From IMG/VR virus record IMGVR_UViG_3300045988_038155: 39,675 nt of DNA; one strand, 5' to 3'. Of the stretch, positions 6,161 through 39,675 are shown piece by piece. Every line of letters starts with the position of its first letter. Position 1 is the stretch's first letter. Made by a program: the position numbers and the translations under genes. A model generated the notes under the pieces. The model did no database searches. It saw only the letters and a program-made list of their open reading frames with translations, and was not told the origin of the DNA. This DNA is from a virus.

Positions 6161-6185
6161 ACAATATATTTTGGAGGTTACTATT

Positions 6186-6818: not shown

Positions 6819-7250
6819 GAGCAAGGGCATGGCATTGACGGCCCTGATTCGCGGAGGCGGTGCGATGCAGAGCTTGGCAACGGCAAGGCGATGCATGGTG
6901 AGGCAAGGCGAAGCAGTGGCATAGCGTCGTGAGGTAAAGAGAGGCAGAGCAAAGGCATAGCTTGGCGCTGCGATGCGCGGCGAAGGCTATGAGGTGAACT
7001 GCTGTGCAGTGGCGGAGCAGCGGCACTGAGAAGCACAGAGCAGCGAGGCGAAGGAAAAGCGGAGAGTAGCGGAGCGATGGCATAGTACCGCGCCGTCGCG
7101 AATGGCAGAGCAAAGGAATGGCAGAGAAAAGCGCTGATGTGATTTGCGAAGGAAAAGTGGTGCACCGTAACGATTCGCTGCGGCAAGGTTTTGCTTCGGA
7201 TGCATTGGCATGGCAGCGCGACACACTGCGACGGCACAGCAAAGAGAAGA
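6819..7250 (+). repeat. Purine-rich, low-complexity non-coding block with scattered short repeats
   Basis: No + strand ORF. Recurring words are ggcaaggcga, gcagagcaaagg, gcgaaggaaaag and ggcatag. 45 of 60 bases are purines in line 6901-6960. The three overlapping - strand ORFs are artefacts of pyrimidine bias. Confidence 0.6.
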
Positions 7251-7287
7251 GATTTTATTAAACATTTTATTAAAAGGAGAAACGAGC

Positions 7288-7530
7288 ATGAAAAAAATTA
7301 TTGTTGGTGTAGCGTCCGTATTGGCAAGCGCTTTGCTGATGGCCGGATGCAATAAGCAGGTTATTGACCTGACCTATGAATACAGCTGGGCACAGCTTAA
7401 AATGCCAGATGGAACGATTGTCGAGGGGAGATTAAACAGTTGGGACGATTACGAGGGCGACCAGCTGCAAGTGAAGATTGACGGCGTGACCTATCTGGTT
7501 CATTCGTCCAATGTTGTGCTGAGACATTGA
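7288..7530 (+). CDS. Lipoprotein (80 aa)
   Basis: AAAGGAGAA RBS. Signal plus lipobox LLMAG|C. Confidence 0.8.
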   Translation: MKKIIVGVASVLASALLMAGCNKQVIDLTYEYSWAQLKMPDGTIVEGRLNSWDDYEGDQLQVKIDGVTYLVHSSNVVLRH

Positions 7531-11128: not shown

Positions 11129-11463
11129 CAGTGGAGATGATGACAAAGCTCCTTGCGGACGCTGAAGCCTATTTTGGACGGCCTCAGACCGCAGAGAACC
11201 GCGCAAGTATCGCGGAGATCTGGGCGAACTCATCGCTCAAGGATGTGCCGGATAAGATGGCCTATAAGACATTCCACGAGGTGATTTCGGAGTGCAGCTG
11301 GCAGAGCCAGCTGCTCCCGGCGTGGAAAAAGGCCGTCGAAAAGGCCCAGGGTGAGCAGATGCTGGCGAAGCACTGCCTTGCTGCCCGCACCCGGATGCTC
11401 AAGTCCAGGAAAGAAAGAAAGCTTCTTGGGCAGGCAAACCAGAACGGAGGACGAAATGCCTAG
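11125..11463 (+). CDS. Hypothetical protein (replication module)
   Basis: GTGA overlap. AAGGGGGTGA RBS. Confidence 0.6.
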   Translation: MTVEMMTKLLADAEAYFGRPQTAENRASIAEIWANSSLKDVPDKMAYKTFHEVISECSWQSQLLPAWKKAVEKAQGEQMLAKHCLAARTRMLKSRKERKLLGQANQNGGRNA

Positions 11464-11650
11464 ATACAAAGTCATCGTAGAGTGCAGCGGCCCGCACGGG
11501 AACGCGGCGCTTACATACCGCATCAACGCCGCGAGTCAGTTTGCGGCAGAGTTCCGGGCCTGTCAGCTGGCGGGCGACCATTACCCCGAATATCGGGACA
11601 TCAAACCGGTGAGAACGGAGGTGCTGAAAAATGACGATGACGCCGTGTAA
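11456..11650 (+). CDS. Hypothetical protein
   Basis: GGAGGA RBS before ATG 11456. Confidence 0.6.
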   Translation: MPRYKVIVECSGPHGNAALTYRINAASQFAAEFRACQLAGDHYPEYRDIKPVRTEVLKNDDDAV

Positions 11651-11849
11651 AGACTGCCCCGCACGGCACCCGGTATGCCACGACAGCTGCCTCAAGTACG
11701 CCGAGTTCAAGCGCCAACGCGGCGCAGAAGCCGCTTACACCCGAGAGATGCTGGACACAGGCAAGGTCTACCACTACGACCACGAAGACCGCCACCGGGA
11801 ACGAGGCCGCAAGAAGTACATGGGAGCGAACGGAGGAGCGGACAGATGA
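11631..11849 (+). CDS. Cys-rich small protein
   Basis: GGAGGTG RBS. Motif CKDCPARHPVCHDSC. Confidence 0.6.
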   Translation: MTMTPCKDCPARHPVCHDSCLKYAEFKRQRGAEAAYTREMLDTGKVYHYDHEDRHRERGRKKYMGANGGADR

Positions 11850-12472
11850 AAGTGCTTATCGCCTGCGAAGAATCGCAGGAAGTTTGCAAGGCATTTCGGG
11901 CAAAAGGTCACGAAGCCTACTCCTGCGATATTCAGGAGCCGTCCGGCGGACATCCTGAGTGGCACATTCTCGGGGATGCGCTCAAGGCCATTGAGGGTGG
12001 GCAAATCGTAACGATGGACGGCGTGGCGCATGAAGTCGGAAAGTGGGATTTGCTCATTGCACACCCGCCCTGCACACACCTGGCTGTTTCTGGTGCGCGG
12101 TGGTTCACGGAGGGAAAAAAACCACTCAGCTTACGATATGAAGCTGCTGCGTTTTTTATGAAATTTGTAGAAGCGAATATCCCGCAAATCGCAGTAGAAA
12201 ACCCCGTGTGCGTGATGTCTACGCTATACCGAAAGCCGGATCAAGTTATTAATCCCTGGCAATTTGGACACCCGGAGCAAAAGAGAACCTGCTTGTGGCT
12301 TAAAAATCTTTCCATCTTGGAAGAAACTGATAATGTGTACGACTACATGACGACGTTACCGCCGAAACTGCGAGAAAAGAATCATTGGATGGGAAGCGGC
12401 CACGCAAAGGAACGGAGCAAAACTTTTCCAGGCATTGCAAAAGCAATGGCTGAACAGTGGGGTGAGCTATGA
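11846..12472 (+). CDS. Short DNA cytosine-C5 methyltransferase-like protein
   Basis: AHPPCT (PC motif IV-like) and AVENPV (ENV motif VI-like). ATGA overlap. Confidence 0.5.
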   Translation: MKVLIACEESQEVCKAFRAKGHEAYSCDIQEPSGGHPEWHILGDALKAIEGGQIVTMDGVAHEVGKWDLLIAHPPCTHLAVSGARWFTEGKKPLSLRYEAAAFFMKFVEANIPQIAVENPVCVMSTLYRKPDQVINPWQFGHPEQKRTCLWLKNLSILEETDNVYDYMTTLPPKLREKNHWMGSGHAKERSKTFPGIAKAMAEQWGEL

Positions 12473-12849
12473 TGCACCTGACCCTCTACGGCGAACCACG
12501 CACCAAGAAAAACTCTGCCCGCATTCTCCGCACGCGCGCTGGTACCCCATTTGTGGCTCCCAGCAAGGCCTACGTGGATTATGAGACCGACTGCCTGCGG
12601 AAAATCAAAAGGCCACGCAGCCCCATCTCTGCCCGTGTGAACGTGCGGTGCGTCTACTACATGAAGACCGCCCGCCGAGTCGATCTGGCAAACCTCATCG
12701 AGGCAACCACAGACATCCTGGTAAAAGCCCGCGTGCTGGAGGACGACAACAGCAAGATCGTCGCCGCCCACGACGGCAGCCGGGTGGAGCTTGACCGGAA
12801 AAACCCGAGGGCGGAAATCGAGATTGAAGAAATGGAGGACGATACATGA
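12469..12849 (+). CDS. rusA: RusA-family Holliday junction resolvase
   Basis: LYGEPRTKKNS...VDLANLIEATTDILVKARVLEDDNSKIV is the typical RusA pattern. Confidence 0.75.
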   Translation: MMHLTLYGEPRTKKNSARILRTRAGTPFVAPSKAYVDYETDCLRKIKRPRSPISARVNVRCVYYMKTARRVDLANLIEATTDILVKARVLEDDNSKIVAAHDGSRVELDRKNPRAEIEIEEMEDDT

Positions 12850-13550
12850 TGTTTGTGTTAAACAAATGCTATAACATGGACTGCATGGAAGCAATGAAAG
12901 AGTTCCGGGACGATTTCTTTGATCTTGCTGTGGTAGACCCGCCGTATTTTTCGGGGCCTGAACGCAGAGGATTCTACGGGTCAAAAATCAGCAAGATTGG
13001 AGTACATCGTGACTATCCGGTTTCGCCGGAATGGACGAAGCCGGGAAAGGAATACTTCGACGAGCTGCGCCGGGTAAGCCGACACTACATTGTATGGGGC
13101 TGCAACTACTTCGATTATAGTTTTGCATCCGGTCGGATCGTGTGGGACAAGTGCAATGGAAAATCGAGTTTCTCAGACTGTGAGATCGCGGCGACGGATT
13201 TGTTCTCTAGTGTTCGGCTGTTTCGGTATATGTGGTCTGGAATGATGCAAGGTAAGAGCATCACAGAAGGACATATCATGCAGGGCAATAAAAGCCTGAA
13301 CGAGAAAAGAATCCATCCAACACAGAAACCAGTTGCGCTGTATGATTGGATCTTCAAAAACTACGCAAAGCCTGGACAAAAGGTGCTAGATACTCACCTT
13401 GGCAGCGGAAGTAGCAGAATTGCCGCTTATGAAGCCGGAATTGACTTTATCGGGTTTGAAATTGACAGTTCCTGTTTTCACATGGAAGAAGAGAGGTTTG
13501 CGGAGCGCACAAGTCAAATGAGCCTACTACACATTGAGGAGGGAAAGTGA
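12846..13550 (+). CDS. DNA N6-adenine/N4-cytosine methyltransferase (beta class, DPPY)
   Basis: VVDPPYF, HPTQKP and DTHLGSGSS motifs. Confidence 0.85.
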   Translation: MMFVLNKCYNMDCMEAMKEFRDDFFDLAVVDPPYFSGPERRGFYGSKISKIGVHRDYPVSPEWTKPGKEYFDELRRVSRHYIVWGCNYFDYSFASGRIVWDKCNGKSSFSDCEIAATDLFSSVRLFRYMWSGMMQGKSITEGHIMQGNKSLNEKRIHPTQKPVALYDWIFKNYAKPGQKVLDTHLGSGSSRIAAYEAGIDFIGFEIDSSCFHMEEERFAERTSQMSLLHIEEGK

Positions 13551-14540: not shown

Positions 14541-14613
14541 ACTCCGGTAGCTCAAGTGGTAGAGCGGCGGTCTCCAAAACCGCATGTTGCAGGTTCGAGT
14601 CCTGCCGGGAGTG
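14541..14613 (+). tRNA. tRNA-Trp(CCA)
   Basis: Full cloverleaf. D stem GCTC/GAGC. Anticodon stem GCGGT/ACCGC with loop CTCCAAA. T arm GCAGG-TTCGAGT-CCTGC. Acceptor has one G-G mismatch. No encoded CCA. Confidence 0.8.
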
Positions 14614-14726
14614 CTTGCATGATCTGACGAGAGCGGGGAGTGCAATAGCGGGGCATCCGGCCGCGAAAGTTCTGGACGCAGAGGCTTTGAACCCGACAAG
14701 CAAGGCCTCTTATTTTGATATTCTGA

Positions 14727-17974: not shown

Positions 17975-19006
17975 ATGACCGACCGTGACCGCATTTCCAC
18001 CCGCCAGCTGAACCGCCTGCGCCGCCGCATCCTCCGGGTATACGGCACCGCCCGCCGGGAGATGCAGGAGCAGCTCACCGAGTTTCTGGCAAAGTACAAA
18101 GCGCTGGACGAACGCAAGCGGGCGCAGCTGGATTCAGGCGAGATCACCGAAGAGGATTACCGCATCTGGCTGCAAAATCAGGTCTTTCAGTCCGATTTGA
18201 TGCGTCAGAAGCTGGACGGCATCACGCAGACCTGCACCACAGCCCAAGAAACGGCCTACAAGCTGGCCCGGGACGAGCAATACAACATCTTTTCCTTTGG
18301 CGCAAACTGGGCTTTCTACGAGCTGGAGCAGGCCGCAGGCGTGACGTTCGGCCTGACCCTGTACAACACCGAAGCGGTCAAGCTCCTGCTGAAGGAGAAC
18401 CCCCGCATGGTACCCAACAAGCGCATTAAGAGCGAGAGCAACCGCACCTATGACGCCCGGGTGTTCAACCGCTACGTCATGCAGGGCATCGTGCAGGGCA
18501 AGAGCGTCCACGACATTGCTGTGCAGGCCGTCAACGGTATGGCAGATACAGAGATCCACTGGGCCATGAACAACGCCATCACAGCCATTACCAGCGCCCA
18601 GAACGCCGGGGCATTGCAGCAGATGCGCAACGCCCAGGCTTTGGGCATCGAGGTCAAAAAGCGCTGGAACTCCACCCACGACTACCGTACCCGTGAAATG
18701 CACCGCCTGCTTGACCAGCAGACGGCAGAGCTTGACGAGCCGTTCAAGGTCATGGGCTACGAGATTCAGCGCCCCGGCGACCCAAACGCCGCCCCGGAGA
18801 TGGTCTATCACTGCCGCTGTGTGCTGTCCTCTGCGCTGGGCAAGTATCCCCGGCAGAACGCCATGCAGCGGGACAATGTGACCAAAGAGACCACCCCCGT
18901 CATGGATTACACCGAGTGGTATAAATCCAAGGGAGGCAAGGAAGCCGAACAAATGTGGCGGGCGGAAGAACGAAAGCACAGAAAGGAGAGTTTCCCAAAT
19001 GAGTAA
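17975..19006 (+). CDS. Minor head protein, MuF / SPP1 gp7 family
   Basis: Position after the portal. Conserved YHCRCVL motif near the C-terminus. Confidence 0.7.
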   Translation: MTDRDRISTRQLNRLRRRILRVYGTARREMQEQLTEFLAKYKALDERKRAQLDSGEITEEDYRIWLQNQVFQSDLMRQKLDGITQTCTTAQETAYKLARDEQYNIFSFGANWAFYELEQAAGVTFGLTLYNTEAVKLLLKENPRMVPNKRIKSESNRTYDARVFNRYVMQGIVQGKSVHDIAVQAVNGMADTEIHWAMNNAITAITSAQNAGALQQMRNAQALGIEVKKRWNSTHDYRTREMHRLLDQQTAELDEPFKVMGYEIQRPGDPNAAPEMVYHCRCVLSSALGKYPRQNAMQRDNVTKETTPVMDYTEWYKSKGGKEAEQMWRAEERKHRKESFPNE

Positions 19007-19424
19007 ACGAGGCTCTGGAAGTTCTACAAGAGCAAGCGGTGGGACTGCCAACGAACACGAGTTTGAATCTTTTGTAAATGGCAAATGGGTCACCGATTAC
19101 AGCAAAATTGCGGCAGCAGAGGCGAAGAAAGCCGCCGTTGTTGTGGATAGTTCCAGATACAAGAAAACGCATAACGACGTTGTATCTTTCATAAAAGAGC
19201 AAGTTGGTGTTGACCTCAACAAATATCGAAGTGGCGATGGTTCTTCTCCGTCTCATACCACATATTGGGACAAGAGCGGCCCAAAAGTTGCATTTGATCT
19301 AAAAGGGATGTCGTCGAGCGACCGCACAAAACTCATGCAACTCACACAAAAGCCGTTTGGCGTGACGGTCGAACAGGGTGGTGCATGGATTGGATTCGTT
19401 TCGAGAAAAAAGAAGAAAAAGTAA
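18999..19424 (+). CDS. Hypothetical protein with MSKRGSGSS N-terminus and poly-Lys tail
   Basis: AAAGGAGAG RBS. N-terminus shared with 20059..20490. C-terminal KKKKK. Confidence 0.7.
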   Translation: MSKRGSGSSTRASGGTANEHEFESFVNGKWVTDYSKIAAAEAKKAAVVVDSSRYKKTHNDVVSFIKEQVGVDLNKYRSGDGSSPSHTTYWDKSGPKVAFDLKGMSSSDRTKLMQLTQKPFGVTVEQGGAWIGFVSRKKKKK

Positions 19425-19442
19425 GGTTTGGAGGGATGAACT

Positions 19443-20066
19443 GTGATTCTGCCGATGGAAAACACCGAGAAAATGATTTTTCCGGGCGTTGGCAAGTATG
19501 GCATCCCTGCTATCAAGCCTGAAACGGACATCCGCATTGACAAGCTGGAATGGATCCCGGTCAATTATGCGCTGACGGCCAAAGACAAGGCCACAAAAGG
19601 CGTGCATTTTTACAAGGACGACTATCAGTTTGAACGGTTCTGGAACAACCCGGATAAGTACATCCCGCTGCTGCAGCAGTTTGGGGCTGTGTGCTCCCCG
19701 GACTTTTCTCTTTACATCGATATGCCGCTTGCGGTGCAGATTTTTATGCACTACAAAAAACACTGGTTGGCTGCTTACTGGCAGATGCACGGTATCCATG
19801 TGATTCCTACGCTCTGCTGGTGCGGTGAGCAAAGTTATGACTGGTGCTTTGATGGTGAGCCTAGAAACGCCATCGTGAGCATTTCGAGCCACGGCACACA
19901 ATCTGACCCATACGAAGCGGAGTGCTTTGCCAAACACTGCCGCAAGGCGCTGGAAGTTCTGCAACCAAGCGGTATTTTGTGGTACGGCAAATGCCCGGCG
20001 GAGTTCGACTGGAACGTGACCAAAATCAAACCATTTCAATACGAGAGGAGGCATTACCGTGAGTAA
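19443..20066 (+). CDS. DUF4417-like protein
   Basis: GVHFYKDDYQFERFWNNPDKY...SPDFSLYIDMP matches my memory of the DUF4417 signature. GGAGGGA RBS and GTG start. Confidence 0.55.
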   Translation: MILPMENTEKMIFPGVGKYGIPAIKPETDIRIDKLEWIPVNYALTAKDKATKGVHFYKDDYQFERFWNNPDKYIPLLQQFGAVCSPDFSLYIDMPLAVQIFMHYKKHWLAAYWQMHGIHVIPTLCWCGEQSYDWCFDGEPRNAIVSISSHGTQSDPYEAECFAKHCRKALEVLQPSGILWYGKCPAEFDWNVTKIKPFQYERRHYRE

Positions 20067-20490
20067 AAGAGGTTCGGGCAGCTCTGCGAGAGCGGGCAAC
20101 GGAGGAATAGCTGCTTTTAACGCGGCATCGCTTCCGATTAAGGGCAGCGAAAAACAGGTTGCGTGGGCGCAAGATATACTCCAGAGCGCTTTTGACACGA
20201 TCGATGCAAACATCAAGCGCACAGAAGAACTGAGCAAACAGGATATTGCAAACTTCAAACGGAATCACCCTGACAAAAAAATGACGGCTGAGCTCAAAAG
20301 CAGAATTACTGCGGACAATGACGCTTGGATTGCGGCTGCAAAAGAATACCGGAGCGCCAGCGCTCAAAACTTTTCCAAAATGAACGAAATCCCGGCAAAA
20401 CAGGTCATTGACAGCAGATATAACTTCTCCGGCGAGGTGATTTTAAGAAGCATCAATTACAACGCAGAACAAAAAAAGCGTAAGAAATAA
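20059..20490 (+). CDS. Hypothetical protein, paralogous termini to 18999..19424
   Basis: GGAGGCA RBS and GTG start. MSKRGSGSSARA N-terminus. KKRKK C-terminus. Confidence 0.7.
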   Translation: MSKRGSGSSARAGNGGIAAFNAASLPIKGSEKQVAWAQDILQSAFDTIDANIKRTEELSKQDIANFKRNHPDKKMTAELKSRITADNDAWIAAAKEYRSASAQNFSKMNEIPAKQVIDSRYNFSGEVILRSINYNAEQKKRKK

Positions 20491-20492
20491 CC

Positions 20493-20945
20493 ATGAAATT
20501 TAACTACGACATAAAATTCAACGACAACACCCCGCAGCTGCATGAGGCACTGGACTTGTGGGCGGAGCGGGTGCTTACCATCTGGGGCATGACGGTGCAG
20601 GACTACGCCCAGCTGCTTGTACCCACCGGCACGGCAGACAGCACTGGCATTGAGGGCTACGTGGGCGGCGCGCTCAAGCAGAGCCTGACCTACGCCGTAG
20701 ACCTTGCAAAAAAGACCGTGACCATCGGGTCGAATCTCTTTTACAGCGTCTATGTTGAGCTTGGCACGGGCATCTTTGCCGAGAAGGACAACGGACGCAA
20801 AACGCCGTGGGTCTGGAAGGACTTTAACGGCAAGTGGCACTTTACCCGGGGCATGAAAGCTCGCCCGTTCCTCCGCCCGGCGGTGGAGGATCACATTGAT
20901 GAGCTGCGGCAGATCGCCGCGGAAGAAGGAAACAAGGAGATATAA
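20493..20945 (+). CDS. HK97 gp10-family protein (head-tail/tail-completion type)
   Basis: IGSNLFYSVYVELGTG...ARPFLRPA motif. Confidence 0.6.
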   Translation: MKFNYDIKFNDNTPQLHEALDLWAERVLTIWGMTVQDYAQLLVPTGTADSTGIEGYVGGALKQSLTYAVDLAKKTVTIGSNLFYSVYVELGTGIFAEKDNGRKTPWVWKDFNGKWHFTRGMKARPFLRPAVEDHIDELRQIAAEEGNKEI

Positions 20946-20946
20946 C

Positions 20947-21324
20947 ATGAAGAAAATTTTCGCATCTATCATGCTGCTTGCGGCGCTTTTGCTGTGCGGC
21001 TGTTCGGAGGCTGACAAGGCAAATCACAACATCGCAAAGCAGGCGGATTACTTTGAGAGCGAGCGCAAACTAACCGTTTACAATGCCCGTACAGACAAGG
21101 TGATAATGGAAGCCGAGGGTTACATGTCCATCTCCAACAACTCAAACAATGAGCTGGTCTGCACCGTCAAAATAGGGCCTAACACCTACCGAAAAAATTA
21201 TGTTTACCTGAACGATTACACCATGTATGTGGTAGAGGACATCACCGGCACCCATACCGACCCGTACCACTACAAGCTCTATTTTCACACGGACGTTTTG
21301 CCAAGCGTGGAAACAAAGCCGTAA
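20947..21324 (+). CDS. Lipoprotein (125 aa)
   Basis: Signal plus lipobox-like LLLCG|C. Followed by a strong terminator. Confidence 0.7.
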   Translation: MKKIFASIMLLAALLLCGCSEADKANHNIAKQADYFESERKLTVYNARTDKVIMEAEGYMSISNNSNNELVCTVKIGPNTYRKNYVYLNDYTMYVVEDITGTHTDPYHYKLYFHTDVLPSVETKP

Positions 21325-21370: not shown

Positions 21371-21447
21371 GCCGCTTTAGCTCAGGTTGGCAGAGCGCCG
21401 GATTTGTAATCCGGGGGCCGTGGGTTCAAGCCCCACAGGCGGCACCA
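21371..21447 (+). tRNA. tRNA-Thr(UGU), phage-encoded, with CCA
   Basis: Acceptor GCCGCTT/AGGCGGC. D arm GCTC-AGGTTGGCA-GAGC. Anticodon arm CCGGA-TTTGTAA-TCCGG. T arm GTGGG-TTCAAGC-CCCAC. Discriminator A plus CCA. Confidence 0.9.
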
Positions 21448-32697: not shown

Positions 32698-32888
32698 GCG
32701 TATACTACAACAAGCAGAGCCTAAAGGAGCAGCATAAGAAGCAGGCCGAAAAAGAGCAGCTGCGGAAGCTCCCGGAGCAGGTGGCCGCCATTGAGGACGC
32801 CCTGTGTGAGCAGGACATGGCATCGGAAGAGCGGCTGGCGACTATCGAGGACTCGCTGTGCGAGCTGGATGCCGCCGTCAACAAGTAA
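32694..32888 (+). CDS. Small coiled-coil protein with internal IED(A/S)LCE(Q/L)D repeat
   Basis: ATGA overlap. GGAGGTG RBS. Confidence 0.6.
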   Translation: MSVYYNKQSLKEQHKKQAEKEQLRKLPEQVAAIEDALCEQDMASEERLATIEDSLCELDAAVNK

Positions 32889-32901
32889 GGAGGACTTCAA
32901 A

Positions 32902-33072
32902 ATGGATAAAATTTGGGCAAACAGACTGGTCGCCGGTACCAAGGAATGGGCAGAGATGCCCGCAAGCCGCCGCGCAGGGGTCAAGCGGGAGCTGGCCAAG
33001 AGGGTGGACAAGGGGGAGGTCAGTGAAGAGGATTATAAGCGCATCACCGGGGAGGACTACTACAATGGATAA
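32902..33072 (+). CDS. XkdX-like small protein
   Basis: AAGGAGGA RBS. Motif KGEVSEEDYKRITGEDY is typical of XkdX-family proteins preceding lysis genes. Confidence 0.55.
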   Translation: MDKIWANRLVAGTKEWAEMPASRRAGVKRELAKRVDKGEVSEEDYKRITGEDYYNG

Positions 33073-33865
33073 ACTGCTGGAGCTGCTGGAAAAGCTGGTG
33101 CGAATGCTTTTTGGCCCCGGGGACAAGCAGGATGCCGAAGAGGCAAAGCCCGCACCGGAACCTCCCGAACCCCCCGGGGCAGAGGCTGTAACCGGCTGGG
33201 AGGGTGACCCGCCCTATCGCTTTGTGGATGTGAGCCGGTATCAGGGCCTTATCGACTGGGCGCAGGTGGCTGCGGCGGGCTACAAGGGGGCAATGCTCAA
33301 GACCGTGAGCACCAACCGCAAGCTCTCCAAGCGGGCAGACGGCCTGTATATCGACCCGACCTTTGAGACCAACTACCGCAACGCCCGGGCTGCCGGGCTG
33401 GACGTGGGCGTCTACTACTACACCTACGCCACCAGCGAGGCCATGGCCGATGCAGAGCTCGCCCTGCTGCGGCAGGCGGTCTACGGCAAGGAGCTGACCC
33501 TGCCTGTGGCAGTGGACGTGGAGGAAAACAAGCTCAAGCCCATGAGTACCCTCGACCTCACCAACCTCACCGCCTATGCGCTGGAACAGGTGGAGCGGAT
33601 GGGCTTTTACGCCCAGCTGTACACCTACACCCACTACTCCAACATGGAGCTGGACATGGGCCGTCTGGCAAACCGCTGGGACGTCTGGCTGTCCGATACG
33701 ACCGGGCGCACCCCCGCCGTCGGCTACCACTACAACGCCCACCAGCACACCAGTGAAGGCAGCGTACCGGGCATCACGGGCAACGTGGACCTCAACGTCA
33801 CCACCGTCAACTACCCCAAAATCATCCGCAAGAAGGGCCTGACCCGTCTCCGGGAGGGCAAATGA
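33065..33865 (+). CDS. Endolysin, GH25 muramidase
   Basis: FVDVSRYQGLIDWAQVAAAGYKGAMLK...GVYYYTYA is the GH25 signature. Pro-rich N-terminal extension. Confidence 0.85.
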   Translation: MDKLLELLEKLVRMLFGPGDKQDAEEAKPAPEPPEPPGAEAVTGWEGDPPYRFVDVSRYQGLIDWAQVAAAGYKGAMLKTVSTNRKLSKRADGLYIDPTFETNYRNARAAGLDVGVYYYTYATSEAMADAELALLRQAVYGKELTLPVAVDVEENKLKPMSTLDLTNLTAYALEQVERMGFYAQLYTYTHYSNMELDMGRLANRWDVWLSDTTGRTPAVGYHYNAHQHTSEGSVPGITGNVDLNVTTVNYPKIIRKKGLTRLREGK

Positions 33866-34254
33866 CCGAAAAAGAAGCTTTGCTGTGGGTACTGGGCATC
33901 CTGGGCGGCCTGTGCGCTGCAGCCATCACCATCGACAAGGTGCTGGACATCATCCACAAGTACATCAAAAAGGCGCAGGAGCCGGACAACGCGCAGAACA
34001 AGCGGCTGGATGAGCTGGACAAGCGCATCGGCACCTTGGAGCAGGGCCAGCTTCAGCACACGCAGGCCCTCGCCCGTGACCTGCGCCGCTTTGAAGAAAT
34101 CGACGAGGTGAGCCGTCTGACCCTCGACGGGGTGCGCAATCTGCTGGACGCGCAGCTGTCCGGCAACAATCGCGAGGGGATGCAGAAGAGCCGCGCCGAC
34201 ATCGACAACTATCTGTTAAAAGGAGTGACCAATCATGGAAGCACTGGCAACTAA
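33862..34254 (+). CDS. Holin-like protein (N-terminal TM plus coiled coil)
   Basis: TM helix LLWVLGILGGLCAAAITI. ATGA overlap with the endolysin. Confidence 0.5.
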   Translation: MTEKEALLWVLGILGGLCAAAITIDKVLDIIHKYIKKAQEPDNAQNKRLDELDKRIGTLEQGQLQHTQALARDLRRFEEIDEVSRLTLDGVRNLLDAQLSGNNREGMQKSRADIDNYLLKGVTNHGSTGN

Positions 34255-34576
34255 GCTTTTTGACCTTATCCCTGCCCCGGTGGCGGCAGTGCTGATGCTG
34301 GGCGGATTCATCTTCTACGCCCTCAGCTGCATCCGGCTGGGCTACGGCGCAGCGGTAAAGCCTCTGGTGCTTGACCTCATCGAGCGGGCAGAGCAGGAGA
34401 TTCAGGGGACTAAACGCGGCGCAGAGCGCAAGGCGTGGGTCGTCAAGATGCTCCGGGCCGCTCTGAGCGCCAGCAAATACGGCAGGCTCATCAGCTGGGC
34501 CATCACCGATGAGACCATCGGCACCGTGATTCAGTTTTTCTTTGACCGCGCAAAGGCGGCACTGAGTAAGGAGTAA
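34235..34576 (+). CDS. Holin, LL-H-like family
   Basis: N-terminal TM helix VAAVLMLGGFIFYALSCI followed by an amphipathic domain. AAAGGAG RBS. Confidence 0.55.
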   Translation: MEALATKLFDLIPAPVAAVLMLGGFIFYALSCIRLGYGAAVKPLVLDLIERAEQEIQGTKRGAERKAWVVKMLRAALSASKYGRLISWAITDETIGTVIQFFFDRAKAALSKE

Positions 34577-34580
34577 TACC

Positions 34581-34811
34581 ATGAGCAGCACTATATTCGA
34601 GCAAACACCGCGCTATTATTATGATCAGCGTGCGTACCCGATTTTGTGGCCCGCAGTGTGTGACCATTTTGCCAACGGCGGCAAAATGGGACATCCCCGT
34701 GCCGTGACCGCTCGAGTGCGCAACGCCGGACAGCTGCCGCAGCCCTTCTGGCTCGGTGCTACCTGTGGCGGCGGCTCGTGTAGTGCTGCCCGCTGCGCTG
34801 CAAGGACTTGA
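34581..34811 (+). CDS. Hypothetical protein, possibly the 5' part of a frameshifted regulator gene
   Basis: Strong AAGGAG RBS. The C-terminal third is low-complexity (GATCGGGSCSAARCAART) and overlaps the next ORF by 56 nt. Confidence 0.5.
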   Translation: MSSTIFEQTPRYYYDQRAYPILWPAVCDHFANGGKMGHPRAVTARVRNAGQLPQPFWLGATCGGGSCSAARCAART

Positions 34812-34986
34812 CCGACAGCAGATGACCGCCGCCATCAAAAGCGCACCGCTTGGGAGGGTAGACCGTAAGATAGCCTTACTGCGGTACGTTGAGCGGCTCC
34901 CGCTGCCGGACATTGCAGCACAGACACATTACAGCCGGACGGCGATAGGCTACCGGCTGAAAGGTATTGATAAAATACTTGGATAG
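34756..34986 (+). CDS. Sigma-70 region-4/LuxR-like HTH ORF
   Basis: RKIALLRYVERLPLPDIAAQTHYSRTAIGYRLKGIDKIL. No convincing RBS for GTG 34756 or ATG 34822. Its frame is open from 34708. Confidence 0.45.
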   Translation: MLPVAAARVVLPAALQGLDRQQMTAAIKSAPLGRVDRKIALLRYVERLPLPDIAAQTHYSRTAIGYRLKGIDKILG

Positions 34987-34991
34987 GCAAA

Positions 34992-35036
34992 TCCCCCGGT
35001 GTTCCGTTTGGAGCATCGGGGAATTTTTTATTTTTG
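34992..35036 (+). terminator. Intrinsic terminator ending the late/lysis operon
   Basis: TCCCC(C)G...CGGGGA stem followed by ATTTTTTATTTTT. Confidence 0.65.
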
Positions 35037-35123
35037 GGGACATGGAAGCCCGGCAGTCTTTTTCGCTGAGATAGACCTGGAAGGGCTTGCCGCAAATGGT
35101 GCATCTTTTCTTTATCGCGCGGC

Positions 35124-35624
35124 TCATCCCTGTAAATCAGCAATGGTAACGCCGCAAGCGGCTGCGATCTTTTCGAGGGTAGACACTCTCGAGACTGCCT
35201 TTCCGGACTCTGCATGTTGAATGGTTGCAGTGGACAGCCCGGTTTTTTCTGCCAAGGCCCGGATGGTTAATCCTGCGTTTTCTCTGGCTGCCTTGATTTT
35301 GACGGCAGACACGCCAAGCGTCTTATAATCGGGTGAGTTATACCCAATCACGAACAACCCTTGCTGTTCCATCGGCAACGCCTTGAGCGAATAGCTTTTC
35401 TCTGCATCCTCAATGTCAACGTCCTTCAGGACGTAGGAACAGGCATTGTCAAGCTCCGGGGTCATTTTATGGAGCTTGTGCGCCAGCGTGATCCTCATCG
35501 TCACGCCACGCACAGGGAATCTCGTTGCGTTGTCGAGGTCTGCCTGATTTACATGGTCAGGGGCGCAGGCTTCGTCCAGCAAGCGGTACAGCTTGCCAAG
35601 ATTTCGGATGGTATTGTTTTCCAT
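35124..35624 (-). CDS. Regulator with C-terminal XRE-type HTH and unknown N-terminal domain
   Basis: AGGAGGA RBS. IKAARENAGLTIRALAEKTGLSTATIQHAESG at the C-terminus. Confidence 0.75.
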   Translation of the reverse strand: MENNTIRNLGKLYRLLDEACAPDHVNQADLDNATRFPVRGVTMRITLAHKLHKMTPELDNACSYVLKDVDIEDAEKSYSLKALPMEQQGLFVIGYNSPDYKTLGVSAVKIKAARENAGLTIRALAEKTGLSTATIQHAESGKAVSRVSTLEKIAAACGVTIADLQG

Positions 35625-35640
35625 TTTGTCCTCCTAGCAT

Positions 35641-36048
35641 TCACTTGTTCAGCATGTCCATCACGGCGTTGTAATGCTTTTCGTGTTCTTCGCCAACAGC
35701 AAGCTCCCGCTTGATTTTTTCGTTGCGGTAGCGGCGCTCCTCTCCGTAGATCTCGTTCTCGATCTCATCGGGGATTTCAATGAACGCTTTCTGCTTCTTG
35801 CCGTGAGTCACAACGAACACAACAAAGGCGTGGTGTACGTTCTCCGGCCAACGGCCGATCTGCTGCTTGTAGGCACCCGCCTTCATTTCCTGCCCATTCA
35901 CCAGCAGGGAATTGATGGTGTACTGCCACTTATGGCAAGGGACCGTAAGCTCGTTGCCTTCGTTCCAGAGGGTTTCTTCGGTGATGACCTTTTTGTCAAT
36001 GTCGAGTTCGATTTTTGCGCCGCGGGCGGTATTCCAAGAGTATTTCAT
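35641..36048 (-). CDS. Hypothetical protein (135 aa), first gene of a 2-gene leftward operon
   Basis: GGAGGGA lies 5 nt upstream of ATG 36048. 16 nt upstream of the HTH gene. Confidence 0.7.
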   Translation of the reverse strand: MKYSWNTARGAKIELDIDKKVITEETLWNEGNELTVPCHKWQYTINSLLVNGQEMKAGAYKQQIGRWPENVHHAFVVFVVTHGKKQKAFIEIPDEIENEIYGEERRYRNEKIKRELAVGEEHEKHYNAVMDMLNK

Positions 36049-36086
36049 TTTTTGTCCCTCCATTTGTGTTTCCTTCTGACGCCATC

Positions 36087-36179
36087 ATTATACCACAAAA
36101 CTAATACAAGTGATACAGGCATAGTCACCAGACTTTGCCTTATTTTTTTGTCTATTTTGTATCAGTTGTATTAGTTTTG
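36087..36179. promoter_or_regulatory. Divergent control region: extended -10 promoter (- strand) plus 21-bp inverted repeat
   Basis: The - strand reads TGgTATAAT (complement of 36087-36095). CAAAACTAATACAAGTGATAC at 36096-36116 against GTATCAGTTGTATTAGTTTTG at 36159-36179 (20/21 complementary, 42-bp spacer). Confidence 0.6.
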
Positions 36180-36300
36180 GCTAGGTCGCAATCAAACTCT
36201 AATCAAGATTTAATCAGGCGTTTTTGTCCTTCGTTATGCGTTCGTTGTCTCTTAACTCTCCTTAAAAAGGTAAACTGAGCGCAAAGGGAGGTAAGCGCCA

Positions 36301-36678
36301 ATGTGGAACAAGTTCAGCCCGAACCCTCACGGGGGCAGCGTGGGTGATTGCGCCGTGCGCGCGGTAGCAGCAGCCACCGGGCAGAGCTGGGAGCAGGCCT
36401 ACATTGGATTGGCGCTGACCGGCTTTGCTCTCGGCGATATGCCCAGCGCCAACCGCACATGGGGCGCATACCTCCAAAAGCACGGATTCAAGCGCCACCT
36501 TGTCGAGGCAGACTGCACCACCTGTTACACCGTGGCAGATTTTGCCCGGGAGTATCCGCACGGCGTGTATGTGCTGGGGTGTTCCGGCCATGTTCTGGCC
36601 GTGGTCAACGGTGACTGGCTGGACAGCTGGGACAGCGGCGCAGAATGCCCGATCTACTACTGGTACAAGGAGGACTAA
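36301..36678 (+). CDS. Small protein with papain-like Cys/His/Asp arrangement
   Basis: AAGGGAGG RBS. GDC17AVRA, SGH97VLAV, D108SWDSG. Confidence 0.6.
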   Translation: MWNKFSPNPHGGSVGDCAVRAVAAATGQSWEQAYIGLALTGFALGDMPSANRTWGAYLQKHGFKRHLVEADCTTCYTVADFAREYPHGVYVLGCSGHVLAVVNGDWLDSWDSGAECPIYYWYKED

Positions 36679-36681
36679 ACG

Positions 36682-37131
36682 ATGCCGTACAATCCATATG
36701 GCTACCAAATGCCAAACTACTACGGACAGCCTATGCCTGACCAGCTCACGCAGCTGCGGCAGAATGCCGGGTATCAGGCGCCCATGATGAGCCAACCGAC
36801 AGGTCAAAGCTCCCCAGCCACGCCTCCGATCATCTGGGTGCAGGGCGAAGAGGGCGCAAAAGCCTATATGGTCGCCGCAGGCAACAGCGTGCTCTTGATG
36901 GATAGCGAGAACAGCGCCTTTTACATCAAGAGCACGGACGCAAGCGGAATGCCGCTGCCGCTCAGGGCCTTTGATTACAAGGAGCGCACCACGGCAGCTA
37001 AGATGCCCGCTCAGGCCGTCCAACAGCCCGGCGGGGAGTTTGTCACCAGGGCAGAGTTTGACGCCCTGGCAGCCCGCTGTGCAGCGCTTGAAAAGCAGGA
37101 GCCCACAAAAACCAAAACGGAGGTCAAGTGA
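36682..37131 (+). CDS. Hypothetical protein, P/Y/Q-rich N-terminus
   Basis: AAGGAGGA RBS. MPYNPYGYQMPNYYGQPMP, then a globular segment IIWVQGEEGAKAYMV. Confidence 0.7.
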   Translation: MPYNPYGYQMPNYYGQPMPDQLTQLRQNAGYQAPMMSQPTGQSSPATPPIIWVQGEEGAKAYMVAAGNSVLLMDSENSAFYIKSTDASGMPLPLRAFDYKERTTAAKMPAQAVQQPGGEFVTRAEFDALAARCAALEKQEPTKTKTEVK

Positions 37132-37133
37132 TC

Positions 37134-37361
37134 ATGGCAAATCCTCTTTTTAATGCACTGGGCGGCGGCAAAGCATCATCCATGCCCGGCCCTATGGGCC
37201 AGTTCGGCCAGATGATGCAGCAGTTCCAGCAGTTCAAGGCTAATTTTCAGGGCGATCCAAAGCAGGAGGTGCAAAAGCTCCTGCAATCCGGGCGGATGAG
37301 CCAAGACCAGCTCAACCAGCTTCAGGCAATGGCTCAGCAGTTCCAGCAGTTTTTACACTAA
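37134..37361 (+). CDS. Gln-rich small protein
   Basis: GGAGGT lies 9 nt upstream of ATG 37134. QQFQQF occurs twice. Confidence 0.65.
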   Translation: MANPLFNALGGGKASSMPGPMGQFGQMMQQFQQFKANFQGDPKQEVQKLLQSGRMSQDQLNQLQAMAQQFQQFLH

Positions 37362-37422
37362 GTCGTAACCGTGGCCACGGTCGAGATACACTTTTTACCA
37401 AAAATTTTGAAAGGAGTACAAA

Positions 37423-38199
37423 ATGTCTCTTTCTTCTGACAACATCGGCTTGACTATGCCGGTGCAGCCCGCCAATACCAACAACGGCAACGGCTTTGGC
37501 TTTGGCGGCGATGGTTCGTGGTGGATCATCGTGCTCTTCCTTTTCATCTTCTGCGGCTGGGGCGGTAACTGGGGCGGCAATCGCGCCGGTGCCGGCGCCG
37601 GCGTCGTGGATGGTTACATCCTGACCAGCGACTTCGCCAACATCGAACGCAAGATCGATGGCGTAAACAACGGTATGTGTGACGGTTTCTACCAGCAGGC
37701 ACAGCTCATCAACGGCGTCCAGCAGACCGTGAGTAACGGCTTCATGTCCGCCGAGATCAGCCGTGCAAATCAGCAGGCGGCATTCATGCAGCAGCTCTTT
37801 GCGATGCAGATGCAGCAGCAGAACTGCTGCTGTGAGACCCGGTCTGCTATCCAGGGCGTCAACTACAATCTGGCTACCCAGTCCTGCGAGACCCGGAACA
37901 CCGTGCAGAACGCGACCCGGGACATCGTAGACAACCAGAACCAGAACGCCCGGGCTATCCTGGACGCTCTCACAGCTCAGCGCATCGAGGCAAAGGACGC
38001 CAAGATCGCGGAGCAGAGCCAGCAGCTCTTTGCGGCTCAGCTTGCAGCTTCCCAGGCGGCGCAGAACGAGACCCTCAAGGCATACATGAGCGGTCAGCTG
38101 GCCTACTACAACCCGCGTCCCGTTCCTGCCTTCCCGGTTCCTGCGCCGTACCAGTACGGTAATTGTGGCACCGGATGCGGCTGTAACGGCTGCGCATAA
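37423..38199 (+). CDS. Membrane protein: Gly-rich N-terminus, one TM, Gln-rich coiled coil, Cys-rich C-terminus
   Basis: AAAGGAG RBS. GNGFGFGGDGSWWIIVLFLFIFCGWGGNWGGN, and ...GNCGTGCGCNGCA at the end. Confidence 0.75.
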   Translation: MSLSSDNIGLTMPVQPANTNNGNGFGFGGDGSWWIIVLFLFIFCGWGGNWGGNRAGAGAGVVDGYILTSDFANIERKIDGVNNGMCDGFYQQAQLINGVQQTVSNGFMSAEISRANQQAAFMQQLFAMQMQQQNCCCETRSAIQGVNYNLATQSCETRNTVQNATRDIVDNQNQNARAILDALTAQRIEAKDAKIAEQSQQLFAAQLAASQAAQNETLKAYMSGQLAYYNPRPVPAFPVPAPYQYGNCGTGCGCNGCA

Positions 38200-38265
38200 C
38201 CAAATAACGGCAACTGACTGCAAATTGTAGTCTGTTCAGCCCCTGAGCTGATTTTGCAAACCAGA

Positions 38266-38299
38266 GCGCCGGGGCAAAAGTCCCGGCGCTTTTATTTAT
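38266..38299 (+). terminator. Strong intrinsic terminator
   Basis: GCGCCGGG/CCCGGCGC 8-bp stem, 8-nt loop, then TTTTATTTAT. Confidence 0.8.
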
Positions 38300-38315
38300 G
38301 AAAGGAGCCGATAAA

Positions 38316-38738
38316 ATGGCTGAATTTACGAATCCCAATATCGTGACGGTATCCGCCGGGGAAAATCTTCCCTTGACAGAGACTGCCGTAAAAGGCCCGG
38401 CCTGCATCGTCCATCGTGAGGGCGCGGGTATCGTGACCCTGCGCGGCCTGACAAACCAGTGCAAAGCCCGCTTCAAGGTGAGTTTTGGCGGAAACATTGC
38501 GGTGCCTACCGGCGGCACAGCCGGGGCTATCTCTGTAGCGCTGGCAATCGCTGGCGAGCCGCTGAACAGCGCAACGGCCATTGTTACCCCGGCGGCAGCA
38601 GGGAACTACTTTAATGTGTTCGCCGCCGCCTTTATCGAGGTTCCGCGCGGCTGCTGCGTGACTGTGGCAGTCGAGAACACCAGCACGCAGGCGATCGACA
38701 TTGCAAACAGCAATCTCATCGTTGAGCGCGTGGCATAA
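38316..38738 (+). CDS. BclA-C-terminal-like (C1q/TNF-like jelly-roll) domain protein without collagen repeats
   Basis: AAAGGAG RBS. All-beta pattern ending NSNLIVERVA, reminiscent of the exosporium BclA C-terminal domain ending IIIEKVA (from memory). Confidence 0.5.
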   Translation: MAEFTNPNIVTVSAGENLPLTETAVKGPACIVHREGAGIVTLRGLTNQCKARFKVSFGGNIAVPTGGTAGAISVALAIAGEPLNSATAIVTPAAAGNYFNVFAAAFIEVPRGCCVTVAVENTSTQAIDIANSNLIVERVA

Positions 38739-38753
38739 TGAGAGGAGAGCGCT

Positions 38754-39149
38754 ATGAACATGAAACACCTTAACGCACTGAAAGATATGCTGTGCGAGGA
38801 ACTGGAAGAAATTACCCGAAAAGGTGAACTGAGCGCCGGTGATTTGGACACCGCGCACAAGCTGACCGACACCATCAAGAATATCGACAAGATCCAGATG
38901 CTGGAGGACGGGGACTACAGCCGTACCGGCGAATGGGAAGCCGATATGCGCGGCACTCATGGCCAGGATGGCAGCTATGGCCGTGGCAACAGCTACGCCA
39001 ATCGAGGCCGTCACTATGTTCGTGGACACTACTCCCGCACGGATGGCCGTGATCGCATGATCTCTGACATTGAGGACATGATGCAGGACGCCACCGGCGC
39101 AGAGCGAGACGCTTACAAACGCGCGGCAGACATTCTGCGCAACGCATAA
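38754..39149 (+). CDS. Hypothetical helical/acidic protein with Gly/Arg/Tyr-rich centre
   Basis: GAGGAG RBS. Tight spacing. Confidence 0.7.
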   Translation: MNMKHLNALKDMLCEELEEITRKGELSAGDLDTAHKLTDTIKNIDKIQMLEDGDYSRTGEWEADMRGTHGQDGSYGRGNSYANRGRHYVRGHYSRTDGRDRMISDIEDMMQDATGAERDAYKRAADILRNA

Positions 39150-39167
39150 GGGAGGAGGGCGGCAAGT

Positions 39168-39500
39168 ATGGACATCGACGAGATCAACACCCATATCCAC
39201 AAGCTGAAATGCGGATCGACGGACTGGCAGAGCGTGGAAAAACTTGCCGCCCTCTGCACCGTGAGGAATGAGCTGGAAGAAAAGCAGGCACCGGCAGAAA
39301 TGCAGACTCAAGCGCTGCCTCCCGCGTCGTACCCGGCGGCATGCTCCACAAAAGCAAATCCGCAAAGCGAGTTCGTGGAAGCGGCCAGCGCCGCGCCCTT
39401 TGGAGGCTTGATGGAAGTGCTTGATGAGCACATGAGCGCCATAAAGCTTGCATACCCGAAAGAGTATGAGTTGGTCATGCGGAAGATAACCGCATTGTAA
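39168..39500 (+). CDS. Hypothetical protein
   Basis: GGGAGGAGGG RBS. Last gene before attR. Confidence 0.7.
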   Translation: MDIDEINTHIHKLKCGSTDWQSVEKLAALCTVRNELEEKQAPAEMQTQALPPASYPAACSTKANPQSEFVEAASAAPFGGLMEVLDEHMSAIKLAYPKEYELVMRKITAL

Positions 39501-39547
39501 AACAACACAAAATGTGTTATTTTTACATACAGCCAAAACTTGAAAAA

Positions 39548-39601
39548 TTGAATTTTTAAGTTTAATAAGCTAACGTAAGGCTAACAAACTTTGAATTTTT
39601 A
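39548..39601 (+). repeat. attP-arm direct repeats (candidate integrase arm-type sites)
   Basis: TTGAATTTTTA at 39548-39558 and 39591-39601, with GCTAAC twice between them. AT-rich arm next to the att core. Confidence 0.4.
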
Positions 39602-39620
39602 TCGATAAATGGTAAAATAA

Positions 39621-39675
39621 AACTGATTTGTAATCAGTGGGTTGCAGGTTCAACTCCTGTCACCAGCTCCAAAAA
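39621..39675 (+). repeat. attR core (phage-side copy of the tRNA-Thr 3' part, no tRNA 5' half upstream)
   Basis: Identical to 1-55. The upstream sequence (atcgataaatggtaaaataa) cannot form the tRNA 5' half. Confidence 0.9.

Follow-up and report, generated by a model that had tools for sequence, protein, structure and literature searches.

The right end of the virus record IMGVR_UViG_3300045988_038155 (39,675 nucleotides; hereafter the window, meaning this whole stretch of DNA) carries seven co-oriented genes between positions 36301 and 39500. These genes, designated here g1 to g7, make up one copy (of the form that we call type A) of a self-contained mobile cassette, which is exchanged among siphophages infecting Clostridia of gut and rumen and is carried by thousands of phages of these hosts. 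The recurring core of the cassette comprises a small open reading frame (ORF) resembling region 4 of sigma-70 factors (sig4) with its terminator, the genes g2, g3 and g4, a terminator hairpin, a small beta-rich protein containing cysteine (g5 or a substitute of it) and g6. The optional members are g1 in type A, a 113-residue HExxH protein in type B, and g7. Very probably, the cassette is one functional multi-protein unit.

Distribution and Types of the Cassette

The cassette was found with a fixed gene order in hundreds of IMG/VR phage contigs. A scan with g5 retrieved 374 related contigs, and the carrier contigs per scan ranged from 370 to at least 600 over three scans. When the 54 best related IMG/VR loci with enough flanking DNA were searched by tblastn (L-numbers such as L001 and L030 hereafter designate the related phage loci compared), all seven genes were recovered in order in 43 of them, and the remaining 11 were without only a g3 detectable by this method; the one of these that was examined, L030, has a diverged g3 in place, as found by profile search. 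The co-occurrence of the genes as a block, proposed as a check in an earlier reading of the letters by a model (hereafter the first-pass annotation), is thus verified. The set is present also in Dulem virus 33, a complete circular genome from lemur gut in which the cassette lies between lysin and integrase (identities of 50-76% for g1-g6 and of ~25% for g7), and in the cultured Butyrivibrio phage Ceridwen, in which all seven genes follow the lysin with 32-46% identity (L084, 7074-11037). Ceridwen is integrase-free, has been seen to grow lytically only and has a non-sporulating host, Butyrivibrio fibrisolvens. Three homologues of g5 with identities of just 44-46%, found on contigs of 1-2 kb, still have a g4-like gene upstream and a g6-like gene downstream, in the order g4-g5-g6.

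Both named genomes carry an additional gene within the cassette. That of Dulem virus 33 is an annotated endonuclease gene separating g3 from g4 (L001, 12650-13201, minus strand), and that of Ceridwen is a gene of 264 codons, endonuclease-like in our reading, which separates g5 from g6 (L084, 9518-10312); the latter is annotated as hypothetical and is similar to a protein of Acinetobacter phage AP22. These endonuclease-type genes look like insertions of selfish elements.

Type B cassettes are composed of the sigma-like ORF, g2b, g3b, g4, g5, g6b and the HExxH protein of 113 amino acids (aa). At least 600 pattern matches came from the corresponding scan; of the 80 loci retained, 67 (L093-L159) are members of a very abundant 42-kb lineage. 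In phages of 55 kb, exemplified by Dulem virus 39, type B adjoins the integrase. The HExxH protein at the 3' end of type B varies between 105 and 113 aa (L091, 9081-9422; L088, 10241-10558), has weak DUF2268/SprT-like matches and corresponds to PHROG 1233. Since type B cassettes end with this protein, a small peptidase-like gene of another catalytic type appears to replace g1.

Type C cassettes contain counterparts of g2 and g3, a g4 with 37% identity, an unrelated Cys-rich protein of 123 aa in the slot of g5 and a DUF7841 counterpart of g6, and they are preceded by holin and sig4 genes that are >90% identical to those of the window. The 64 holin-linked loci with room for the cassette divide into 18 of type A, 43 of type C and 3 without any detectable cassette gene; as these last three have the same holin, the cassette is evidently not needed for the virion of phages with this lysis type. 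In L189 the 123-aa protein (12161-12532) is Cys-rich at both ends (MACKTSCKLCPH... ...YFGCFCRS), and the next gene (12546-13184) carries the DUF7841 domain. The 123-aa protein was also considered as a possible homologue of g5, a relationship that was rejected on the basis of its hhalign probability of 0.1%. Within type A, the genes g2-g3-g4 are swapped together (falling to 50%, undetectable and 41% identity, respectively), whereas g1 and g5 stay near 85%.

Further genes accompany the cassettes lying in head modules. Within the cassettes of Dulem virus 35 and L090, the interval from g1 to the sigma-like ORF (L087, ~6380-7290; L090, ~5760-6360) encodes an XhlA-like "hemolysin" (PHROG 937, E = 8e-14) and small transmembrane or coiled-coil proteins, and holin-type genes thus seem to travel with the cassette.

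A very common type A prophage sits inside the housekeeping sigma gene rpoD (L176-L181, ~11200-11800; 11322-11798 in L178). The ORF right after g7 in these loci corresponds to no more than the C-terminal 158 residues of RpoD (regions 3-4) and is followed by trmK. As rpoD is cut by the insertion, the phage would have to bring a replacement of its 3' part at the other end. An insertion into a sporulation sigma gene (sigK, skin-like) was also considered for L176-L181 and rejected, because the truncated sigma ORF beside g7 is that of rpoD.

Genes and Protein Families

The first-pass annotation had described seven co-oriented ORFs with strong Shine-Dalgarno sites, and this description holds for every member. 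All genes lie on the plus strand, at 36301..36678 (g1, 125 aa), 36682..37131 (g2, 149 aa), 37128..37361 (g3, 75-77 aa), 37423..38199 (g4, 258 aa), 38316..38738 (g5, 140 aa), 38754..39149 (g6, 131 aa) and 39168..39500 (g7, 110 aa), and a Shine-Dalgarno site of the GGAGG/AAGGAG type precedes each start codon at normal spacing. The start of g5 is placed at the ATG in position 38316 on the basis of this site and of the homologues, while the longest ORF would begin at 38298. Six of the seven proteins match PHROG families, namely 3754 (g1, E = 3e-28), 21718 (g2, E = 6e-34), 22984 (g3, E = 1e-22), 16490 (g4, E = 3e-49), 20016 (g5, E = 5e-61) and 28802 (g6, E = 8e-11), whereas g7 has no family match and is specific of type A. 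Because of these matches, and of the presence of all seven as conserved ORFs elsewhere, g1-g7 can be considered real genes; being clear members of the above families, the sequences of g1-g6 were already in databases.

All six PHROG families are annotated as of "unknown function" and none belongs to a structural category; g6 has a second, weak PHROG match to a "DNA transfer protein" (E = 3e-3). Scans of the seven proteins against Pfam and NCBIfam gave nothing usable (for g5, the sole match at E <= 1 was a weak and unrelated one to TagA), and none of the seven matched a defense-system model in PADLOC-DB (E <= 1). Sequence searches of the PDB with g1, g2, g4, g5, the family profile of g2 and the type C replacement of g5 produced no match. 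Hence, the earlier statement that the block cannot be assigned to a known phage module stands, since no virion, lysis, replication or defense family is matched by g1-g7 in Pfam, NCBIfam, PHROG or PADLOC; toxin and bacteriocin domains were likewise not found in Pfam and NCBIfam. When Pfam was searched with ten divergent cassette proteins of types A and B and five of type C, the sole match was DUF7841 in the type C counterpart of g6, the weak DUF2268/SprT-like ones apart. Reading of the N-termini by eye revealed neither a signal peptide nor a lipobox in g1, g2, g3, g5, g6 and g7.

The g4 protein is the most constant member of the cassette, being found in types A, B and C, and its family encompasses at least 7,600 clusters at 90% identity. 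From its N-terminus it shows a Gly-rich region, a transmembrane segment, a Q/N-rich region with the motif NCCCETR, the motif PxPVPA[FY]xVPxP and a Cys-rich tail (GNCGTGCGCNGCA); its Gln content is 10.9%. The single hydrophobic stretch, WWIIVLFLFIFCGW (approximately residues 33-46), is flanked by Gly-rich runs on either side, and hydropathy thus predicts that g4 is a single-pass membrane protein. In each of the proteins g2, g3 and g6, short conserved segments accompany a low-complexity one, which is rich in P/Y/Q, Q and R/G/Y/S, respectively. In g2, a P/Y/Q-rich N-terminus precedes a conserved core of ~50 aa (IWVQGE..AK.Y.V....V.L.DSE...FYIKS.D.SG.P) and a helix-like C-terminal segment; its type B counterpart matches PHROG 21718 too (E = 1e-7). 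The g3 protein contains 23% Gln, with QQFQQF occurring twice, and is kept beside g2 and g4 in type A loci, while g6 has its low-complexity part in the middle, between conserved N- and C-terminal segments. The compositional traits listed in the first-pass annotation for g2, g3 and g4 were all present. Finally, g7 shows a conserved C-terminal motif (DSEF/DSDF ... DELM ... Y..V.RK), and the gene is conserved in L001, L002, L030, L089, L092 and Ceridwen.

The Jelly-Roll Protein g5

The AlphaFold2 model of g5, a monomer prediction built from 57 diverse sequences, has a predicted local distance difference test score (pLDDT) of 97.9 across all 140 residues and is all-beta, with 11 strands. In Foldseek comparisons with the PDB, the best match is the C-terminal domain of F-BclA (9h38), with a template modelling (TM) score of 0.77-0.78, followed by matches to BclA (1wck/3tyj), ExsFA (7r1m), BxpB (8d02) and the EDA/TNF ligands (1rj7/1rj8). 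Overall, these solved structures are matched with probability 1.00 and TM scores of 0.69-0.78, at an identity of just 10-13%. On the strength of its model, g5 is a stand-alone domain of the TNF/C1q/BclA-C fold superfamily, in agreement with what had been guessed from the sequence (BclA-C/C1q-like). At the sequence level, g5 does not show BclA_C or ExsF membership in Pfam, NCBIfam or sequence searches of the PDB, and it possesses neither a collagen-like stalk nor an exosporium leader, the jelly roll taking up the entire protein.

The homologues of g5 returned by a full-database search fall into 618 clusters at 50% identity and are almost always ~140 aa long, and at 90% identity the family includes at least 7,600 clusters. 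The nearest predicted viral structures are those of uncharacterized stand-alone proteins of 130-145 aa from uncultured sipho-, podo- and myoviruses of the gut. Between unrelated phage lineages g5 can be 89% identical, while the neighboring cassette genes share 36-50% identity (~36% for g2b and 40-50% for g6b); g5 is the slowest-evolving member of the cassette.

The g1 Protein and Its Possible Papain-Like Site

The arrangement of Cys17, His97 and Asp residues that had been noticed in g1 is conserved in 50 homologues: none of these deviates at His97, Asp108 or Asp111, and at least 90% retain Cys17. In the AlphaFold model (pLDDT 94.8), Cys17 opens the helix formed by residues 17-26 and His97 begins a strand; g1 thus presents the features typical of papain-like proteins, namely a conserved Cys-His-Asp set with the Cys at the N-terminus of a helix and the His on a strand. 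Foldseek comparison of g1 with the PDB gave no significant match, the best being Josephin-2 (E = 0.63, TM score 0.39), and the other weak matches to Tae4, TssM, FMDV Lpro and the C39 domain of ComA are, like Josephin-2, interspersed with unrelated proteins. The family of g1 stands alone among the early genes of Tsamsa-like phages of Bacillus and of Geobacillus phage GBK2, and occurs also in the Lak megaphages of Prevotella, in Myxococcus phage Mx1 and in others, some members being labelled "putative peptidase". This distribution in many unrelated phages rules out g1 as a processing enzyme specific of the cassette, and that part of the first-pass annotation, which had seen in it the processing peptidase of the block, does not stand. 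We regard g1 as a putative minimal papain-like enzyme and as an optional member of the cassette.

Regulatory Signals

As a rule, the cassette has the sig4 ORF (34756..34986, plus strand; up to 76 aa) as its upstream partner. The match of sig4 to Pfam Sigma70_r4_2 (E = 1e-3) is under the curated cut-off, and that to PHROG 36, "transcriptional regulator", has E = 4e-4. A similar region 4-like ORF immediately precedes g1 or g2 in L001, L002/L178, L030, L092, Ceridwen, Dulem virus 35, L090 and L091. In the window, sig4 is followed by a terminator-like element closing the lysis/sig4 transcription unit (34994..35031, plus strand), which consists of a hairpin at 34994-35021, with a 12-bp stem including 8 G-C pairs, and a T-run; by reading of the sequences, similar hairpins follow the sig4-like ORF in L001, L002, L091 and Ceridwen. 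No promoter of the sigma-70 type was found within positions 33800-39590.

Two elements within or next to the cassette could participate in its regulation. The former, GTTTTTGTCCTTCGTTATGCGTTCGTTGTCT, is a direct-repeat element of 31 nucleotides (nt) at 36220..36250 on the plus strand, 50-80 nt upstream of g1, in which two CGTT-containing direct repeats, CCTTCGTT and CGTTCGTT, lie 11 bp apart. L030, L183 and L190 have the same element ~60-70 nt before their first cassette gene, as does L189, which is of type C. From this recurrence, we infer that it is a candidate regulatory site.

The latter is the leader between g4 and g5 (38200..38299, plus strand), in which a strong intrinsic terminator with its stem at 38263-38292 is followed by a U-run and then by the ribosome-binding site of g5. 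The stem has 13 bp, including 9 G-C pairs, and is the strongest in the scanned region 33800-39675; the strong terminator dividing the cluster that had previously been noted is therefore present. The whole spacer folds with -46.7 kcal/mol (z = -6.0 vs. shuffles). The hairpin is kept across type A and type B loci, with compensatory changes in 6 of 10 pairs, and is missing from Ceridwen and some distant loci. In a slide control of the terminator helix, 95.5% of the cells were paired in the correct register, compared with 49-64% in other registers; the formal covariation test on the spacer covered this helix. A search of Rfam with the leader returned nothing. Since the hairpin directly precedes the ribosome-binding site of g5, transcription of g5-g7 must either pass through it or start within the leader. 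Two more hairpins lie upstream of the terminator, in the segment 38200-38262, and the second hairpin of the spacer (TCAGC...GCTGA; elsewhere TCGGC...GCCGA or CTGC...GCAG) is found in the same place with differing sequence.

Context of the Cassette in the Window

The window represents a temperate siphophage bounded by identical repeats of 55 bp (1-55 and 39621-39675). The right copy, or attR core (39621..39675, plus strand), corresponds to the 3' half of a tRNA-Thr(UGU), as indicated by matches to tRNA-Thr and a partial Rfam match to tRNA, and a tyrosine integrase is encoded at 163-1296 on the minus strand. The structural genes include terminase, portal, MuF-like head protein, scaffold, major head protein, major tail protein and tape measure, such that the siphovirus gene set is complete without the seven-gene block. 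A GH25 lysin (32858-33865) follows the tail-tip genes and precedes two small membrane proteins (33862-34576), after which come sig4 and its hairpin. Between this hairpin and g1 lie two divergent genes on the minus strand (35124-36063), an XRE-type helix-turn-helix (HTH) gene and a gene for a protein of 140 aa, with a spacer of 237 nt separating their region from g1. Because only some otherwise near-identical relatives carry this pair, it is a variable insertion. The earlier placement of the block between the terminator of the lysis operon and attR is correct for its position, except that the HTH/140-aa pair intervenes and that sig4 belongs with the cluster.

The window also carries phage-encoded genes for tRNA-Trp(CCA) and tRNA-Thr(UGU), at 14541-14614 and 21371-21447; the latter lies inside the head module and has the same anticodon as the tRNA-Thr of the att core, with a different sequence. 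Five small ORFs (141-207 aa) are located at 18999-21324, between the genes for the MuF-like head protein and scaffold. This region looks like a second cargo site, given that Dulem virus 35 and the type B lineage hold their cassette in that slot.

Proposed Function and Alternative Explanations

We favor the interpretation that the cassette encodes a separately regulated, late, non-virion complex acting at the cell membrane. This composite proposal, in which the timing is read from sequence signals, is advanced tentatively and falls somewhat short of an even probability, whereas its central part, namely that the products form a non-virion, membrane-associated assembly, appears evenly balanced. 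The cassette would be transcribed apart from the virion and lysis operons, probably under the drive of the direct-repeat element, and read-through of the g4-g5 hairpin would set the output of g5-g7. Late in infection, the products would assemble at the cytoplasmic membrane of the infected cell, with g4 providing a membrane anchor and a long Q/N-rich stalk. A putative trimer of g5 could dock on g4, possibly on its Pro-rich/Cys-rich tail, by analogy with ExsF, the trimers of which hold Pro-rich leader peptides in the clefts between subunits (PMC12357932). The low-complexity proteins g2, g3 and g6 may function as linkers or matrix, and g1 might trim or cross-link a component.

Such a complex would act at the cell envelope in lytic growth and perhaps in lysogens. 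Competition with other phages, by exclusion or by blocking adsorption, would be the most plausible guess, and is suggested by the swapping of g2-g4 and of the g5 slot between otherwise similar phages; taken by itself, a role in exclusion or competition is rather doubtful. We might be dealing with an undescribed class of phage system, very common among phages of gut Clostridia, in which a g4 stalk with an exchangeable beta-rich head (g5 or the unrelated Cys-rich protein), built with the aid of the low-complexity partners and controlled by a sigma-like regulator and an attenuator-like hairpin, would remodel the envelope of infected cells or lysogens, for instance against rival phages; this is possible, if on the unlikely side.

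Several observations weigh against the membrane complex that we favor. No homology links any cassette member to a function, and a role in exclusion is without precedent by homology, given the lack of PADLOC matches. The link between sig4 and the cassette is not exclusive, because sig4 is also present in two cassette-free loci (L212 and L215). Moreover, g4 of type C keeps its Pro-rich tail even though g5 is replaced by an undetectably similar protein, which weakens the specific idea that g5 docks on this tail. The genomic position of some cassettes would fit a role in the virion as well: in both Dulem virus 35 and L090, the gene for the MuF-like head protein precedes a cassette of type A (in Dulem virus 35, the scaffold and major capsid genes come next), type B occupies the position between MuF and scaffold in the 42-kb lineage, and a portal-like gene adjoins the cassette in L173.

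These positions constitute the principal argument for considering the products as accessory virion proteins, with g5 forming a trimeric decoration of head or fiber akin to a TNF-like knob and g4, g2 and g6 serving in attachment, fibers or ejection. The retention of the cassette in the apparently virulent phage Ceridwen, the weak match of g6 to a DNA transfer protein and the frequency of TNF/C1q-like knobs at the tips of phage fibers (the spike knob of phi812, and tail-fiber entries among the structural matches) are in line with this explanation, which we nevertheless judge unlikely. The cassette has no fixed place in a morphogenesis operon, its position shifting between unrelated modules, and is insulated by terminators and accompanied by its own region 4-like ORF. 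The 89% identity of g5 spans lineages with unrelated structural genes, while proteins binding to receptors or lattices usually show the opposite, and with all its 140 residues in the jelly roll g5 has no attachment arm left. Phages with the same lysis genes have an unrelated protein in place of g5, cassette-free relatives exist, and in the window the siphovirus gene set is already complete and the PHROG matches are without structural category. A different function in the phage cycle would be that of an accessory or timing module for lysis, acting with holins at the membrane, in which g4 would resemble an i-spanin or holin partner. The type A cassette directly follows holin and endolysin genes, head-module cassettes enclose the XhlA-like and small transmembrane proteins described above, and g4 has the general layout of Rz-type i-spanins, namely an N-terminal transmembrane segment, a long polar region and conserved Cys. 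We consider this quite improbable, since no lysis gene was seen beside type B cassettes, the other six N-termini show no lipobox or lipoprotein signal for the o-spanin of a spanin pair, and the known or likely hosts are presumably single-membraned, leaving no outer membrane to fuse. In addition, a set of six to seven genes with a putative TNF-fold trimer matches no described lysis system.

The first-pass annotation had seen the block in the classic moron position and proposed a module of a new type for lysogenic conversion or exclusion. The framing as a moron for lysogenic conversion does not agree with the presence of the same cassette in the integrase-free Ceridwen, within head modules and beside integrases, nor with the absence of a sigma-70 promoter in the region scanned; a function limited to lysogeny or spores is unlikely in view of the lytic growth of Ceridwen, its non-sporulating host and the cassettes in head modules elsewhere. 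A more defined version would be the conversion of the spore or cell surface, in which an exosporium- or coat-like layer would be built with g5 in the role of ExsF/BclA and with Cys-, Gln- and Tyr-rich partners cross-linked by g1. The solved structures closest to g5 are indeed those of the exosporium proteins F-BclA, BclA, ExsFA and BxpB, the partners resemble spore-coat proteins in their richness in Cys, Gln, Tyr, Gly and Arg, and the block of the window adjoins the attR of a temperate phage of Clostridia. The evidence from Ceridwen, the head modules and the promoter scan applies here as well, together with the lack of BclA_C/ExsF sequence membership and of an exosporium leader in g5, while the common carrier prophage is inserted in rpoD, which is not a sporulation gene; we thus hold this version to be very unlikely. 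As to a factor released at lysis, the clostridial loci UviA/UviB/Bcn and TcdR/TcdE combine a sigma-type regulator and a holin-like protein with a toxin or bacteriocin that has no signal peptide. The cassette similarly associates a small sigma-like regulator and holin-like transmembrane proteins with products devoid of signal peptides, and the C1q/TNF fold is typically a binding module, so that g5 might be an extracellular binding protein. The regulator, though, is a region 4-like fragment only and not a sigma factor of TcdR type, g4 is predicted to be membrane-anchored, and the searches of Pfam and NCBIfam found no toxin or bacteriocin domain, rendering a released factor most improbable.

Whichever its function, the cassette occupies ~8% of a 40-kb genome with no member having an assigned function, and solving it would annotate a large block of unannotated phage genes of human gut and rumen. 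A new mode of action of Clostridia phages on the envelope, or of competition among them, might come to light as well. The cultured carrier Ceridwen, with its host DSM 3071, makes the function of the cassette testable, and handles on its regulation are offered by the conserved leader with its terminator and by the repeat element upstream of g1.

Comparison with Known Systems

Literature searches found no description of the cassette, of its architecture or of its RNA and DNA elements, and the cassette resembles no described phage system. Its position between lysis genes and attR in the window, its insulation by terminators, its membrane component and the allelic variation among related phages recall morons and genes for superinfection exclusion. 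It differs from these in comprising six to eight genes where they have one or two, in being carried by an apparently virulent phage and within head modules, and in having neither a sigma-70 promoter nor a match to defense models.

At the level of single proteins, g1 shares with papain-like peptidases, deubiquitinases and NlpC/P60 amidases a Cys at the N-terminus of a helix, a His at the start of a strand and Asp residues, but it falls below the known families in size (125 aa), has no match in Pfam and shows only the marginal similarity to Josephin-2 already reported. The predicted fold of g5 is common to the ligands of the TNF superfamily such as EDA and 4-1BBL (TM scores of 0.6-0.73), and by analogy only, g4 and g5 together might be likened to a type II membrane ligand, the transmembrane segment, stalk and trimeric head of which would be split over two polypeptides. 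Different from TNF ligands, g5 has no sequence similarity to them, derives from a bacterial or viral source and is encoded separately from g4, with a terminator between the two genes.

The nearest structural relatives are the exosporium proteins. The modelled g5 has the jelly-roll fold of BclA-C, F-BclA, ExsFA and BxpB (TM scores of 0.72-0.78, probability 1.0) and, as in ExsFA and BxpB, it is a stand-alone domain of ~140-170 aa and not the head of a collagen stalk; moreover, ExsF docks Pro-rich peptides (PMC12357932) and g4 ends in a conserved Pro-rich motif. The cassette departs from these relatives in both sequence and context: the identity of g5 to them is only 10-13%, collagen repeats and leader are lacking, its partner genes are unrelated to ExsY, CotY and BclA, and it is encoded by phages, including one with a non-sporulating host.

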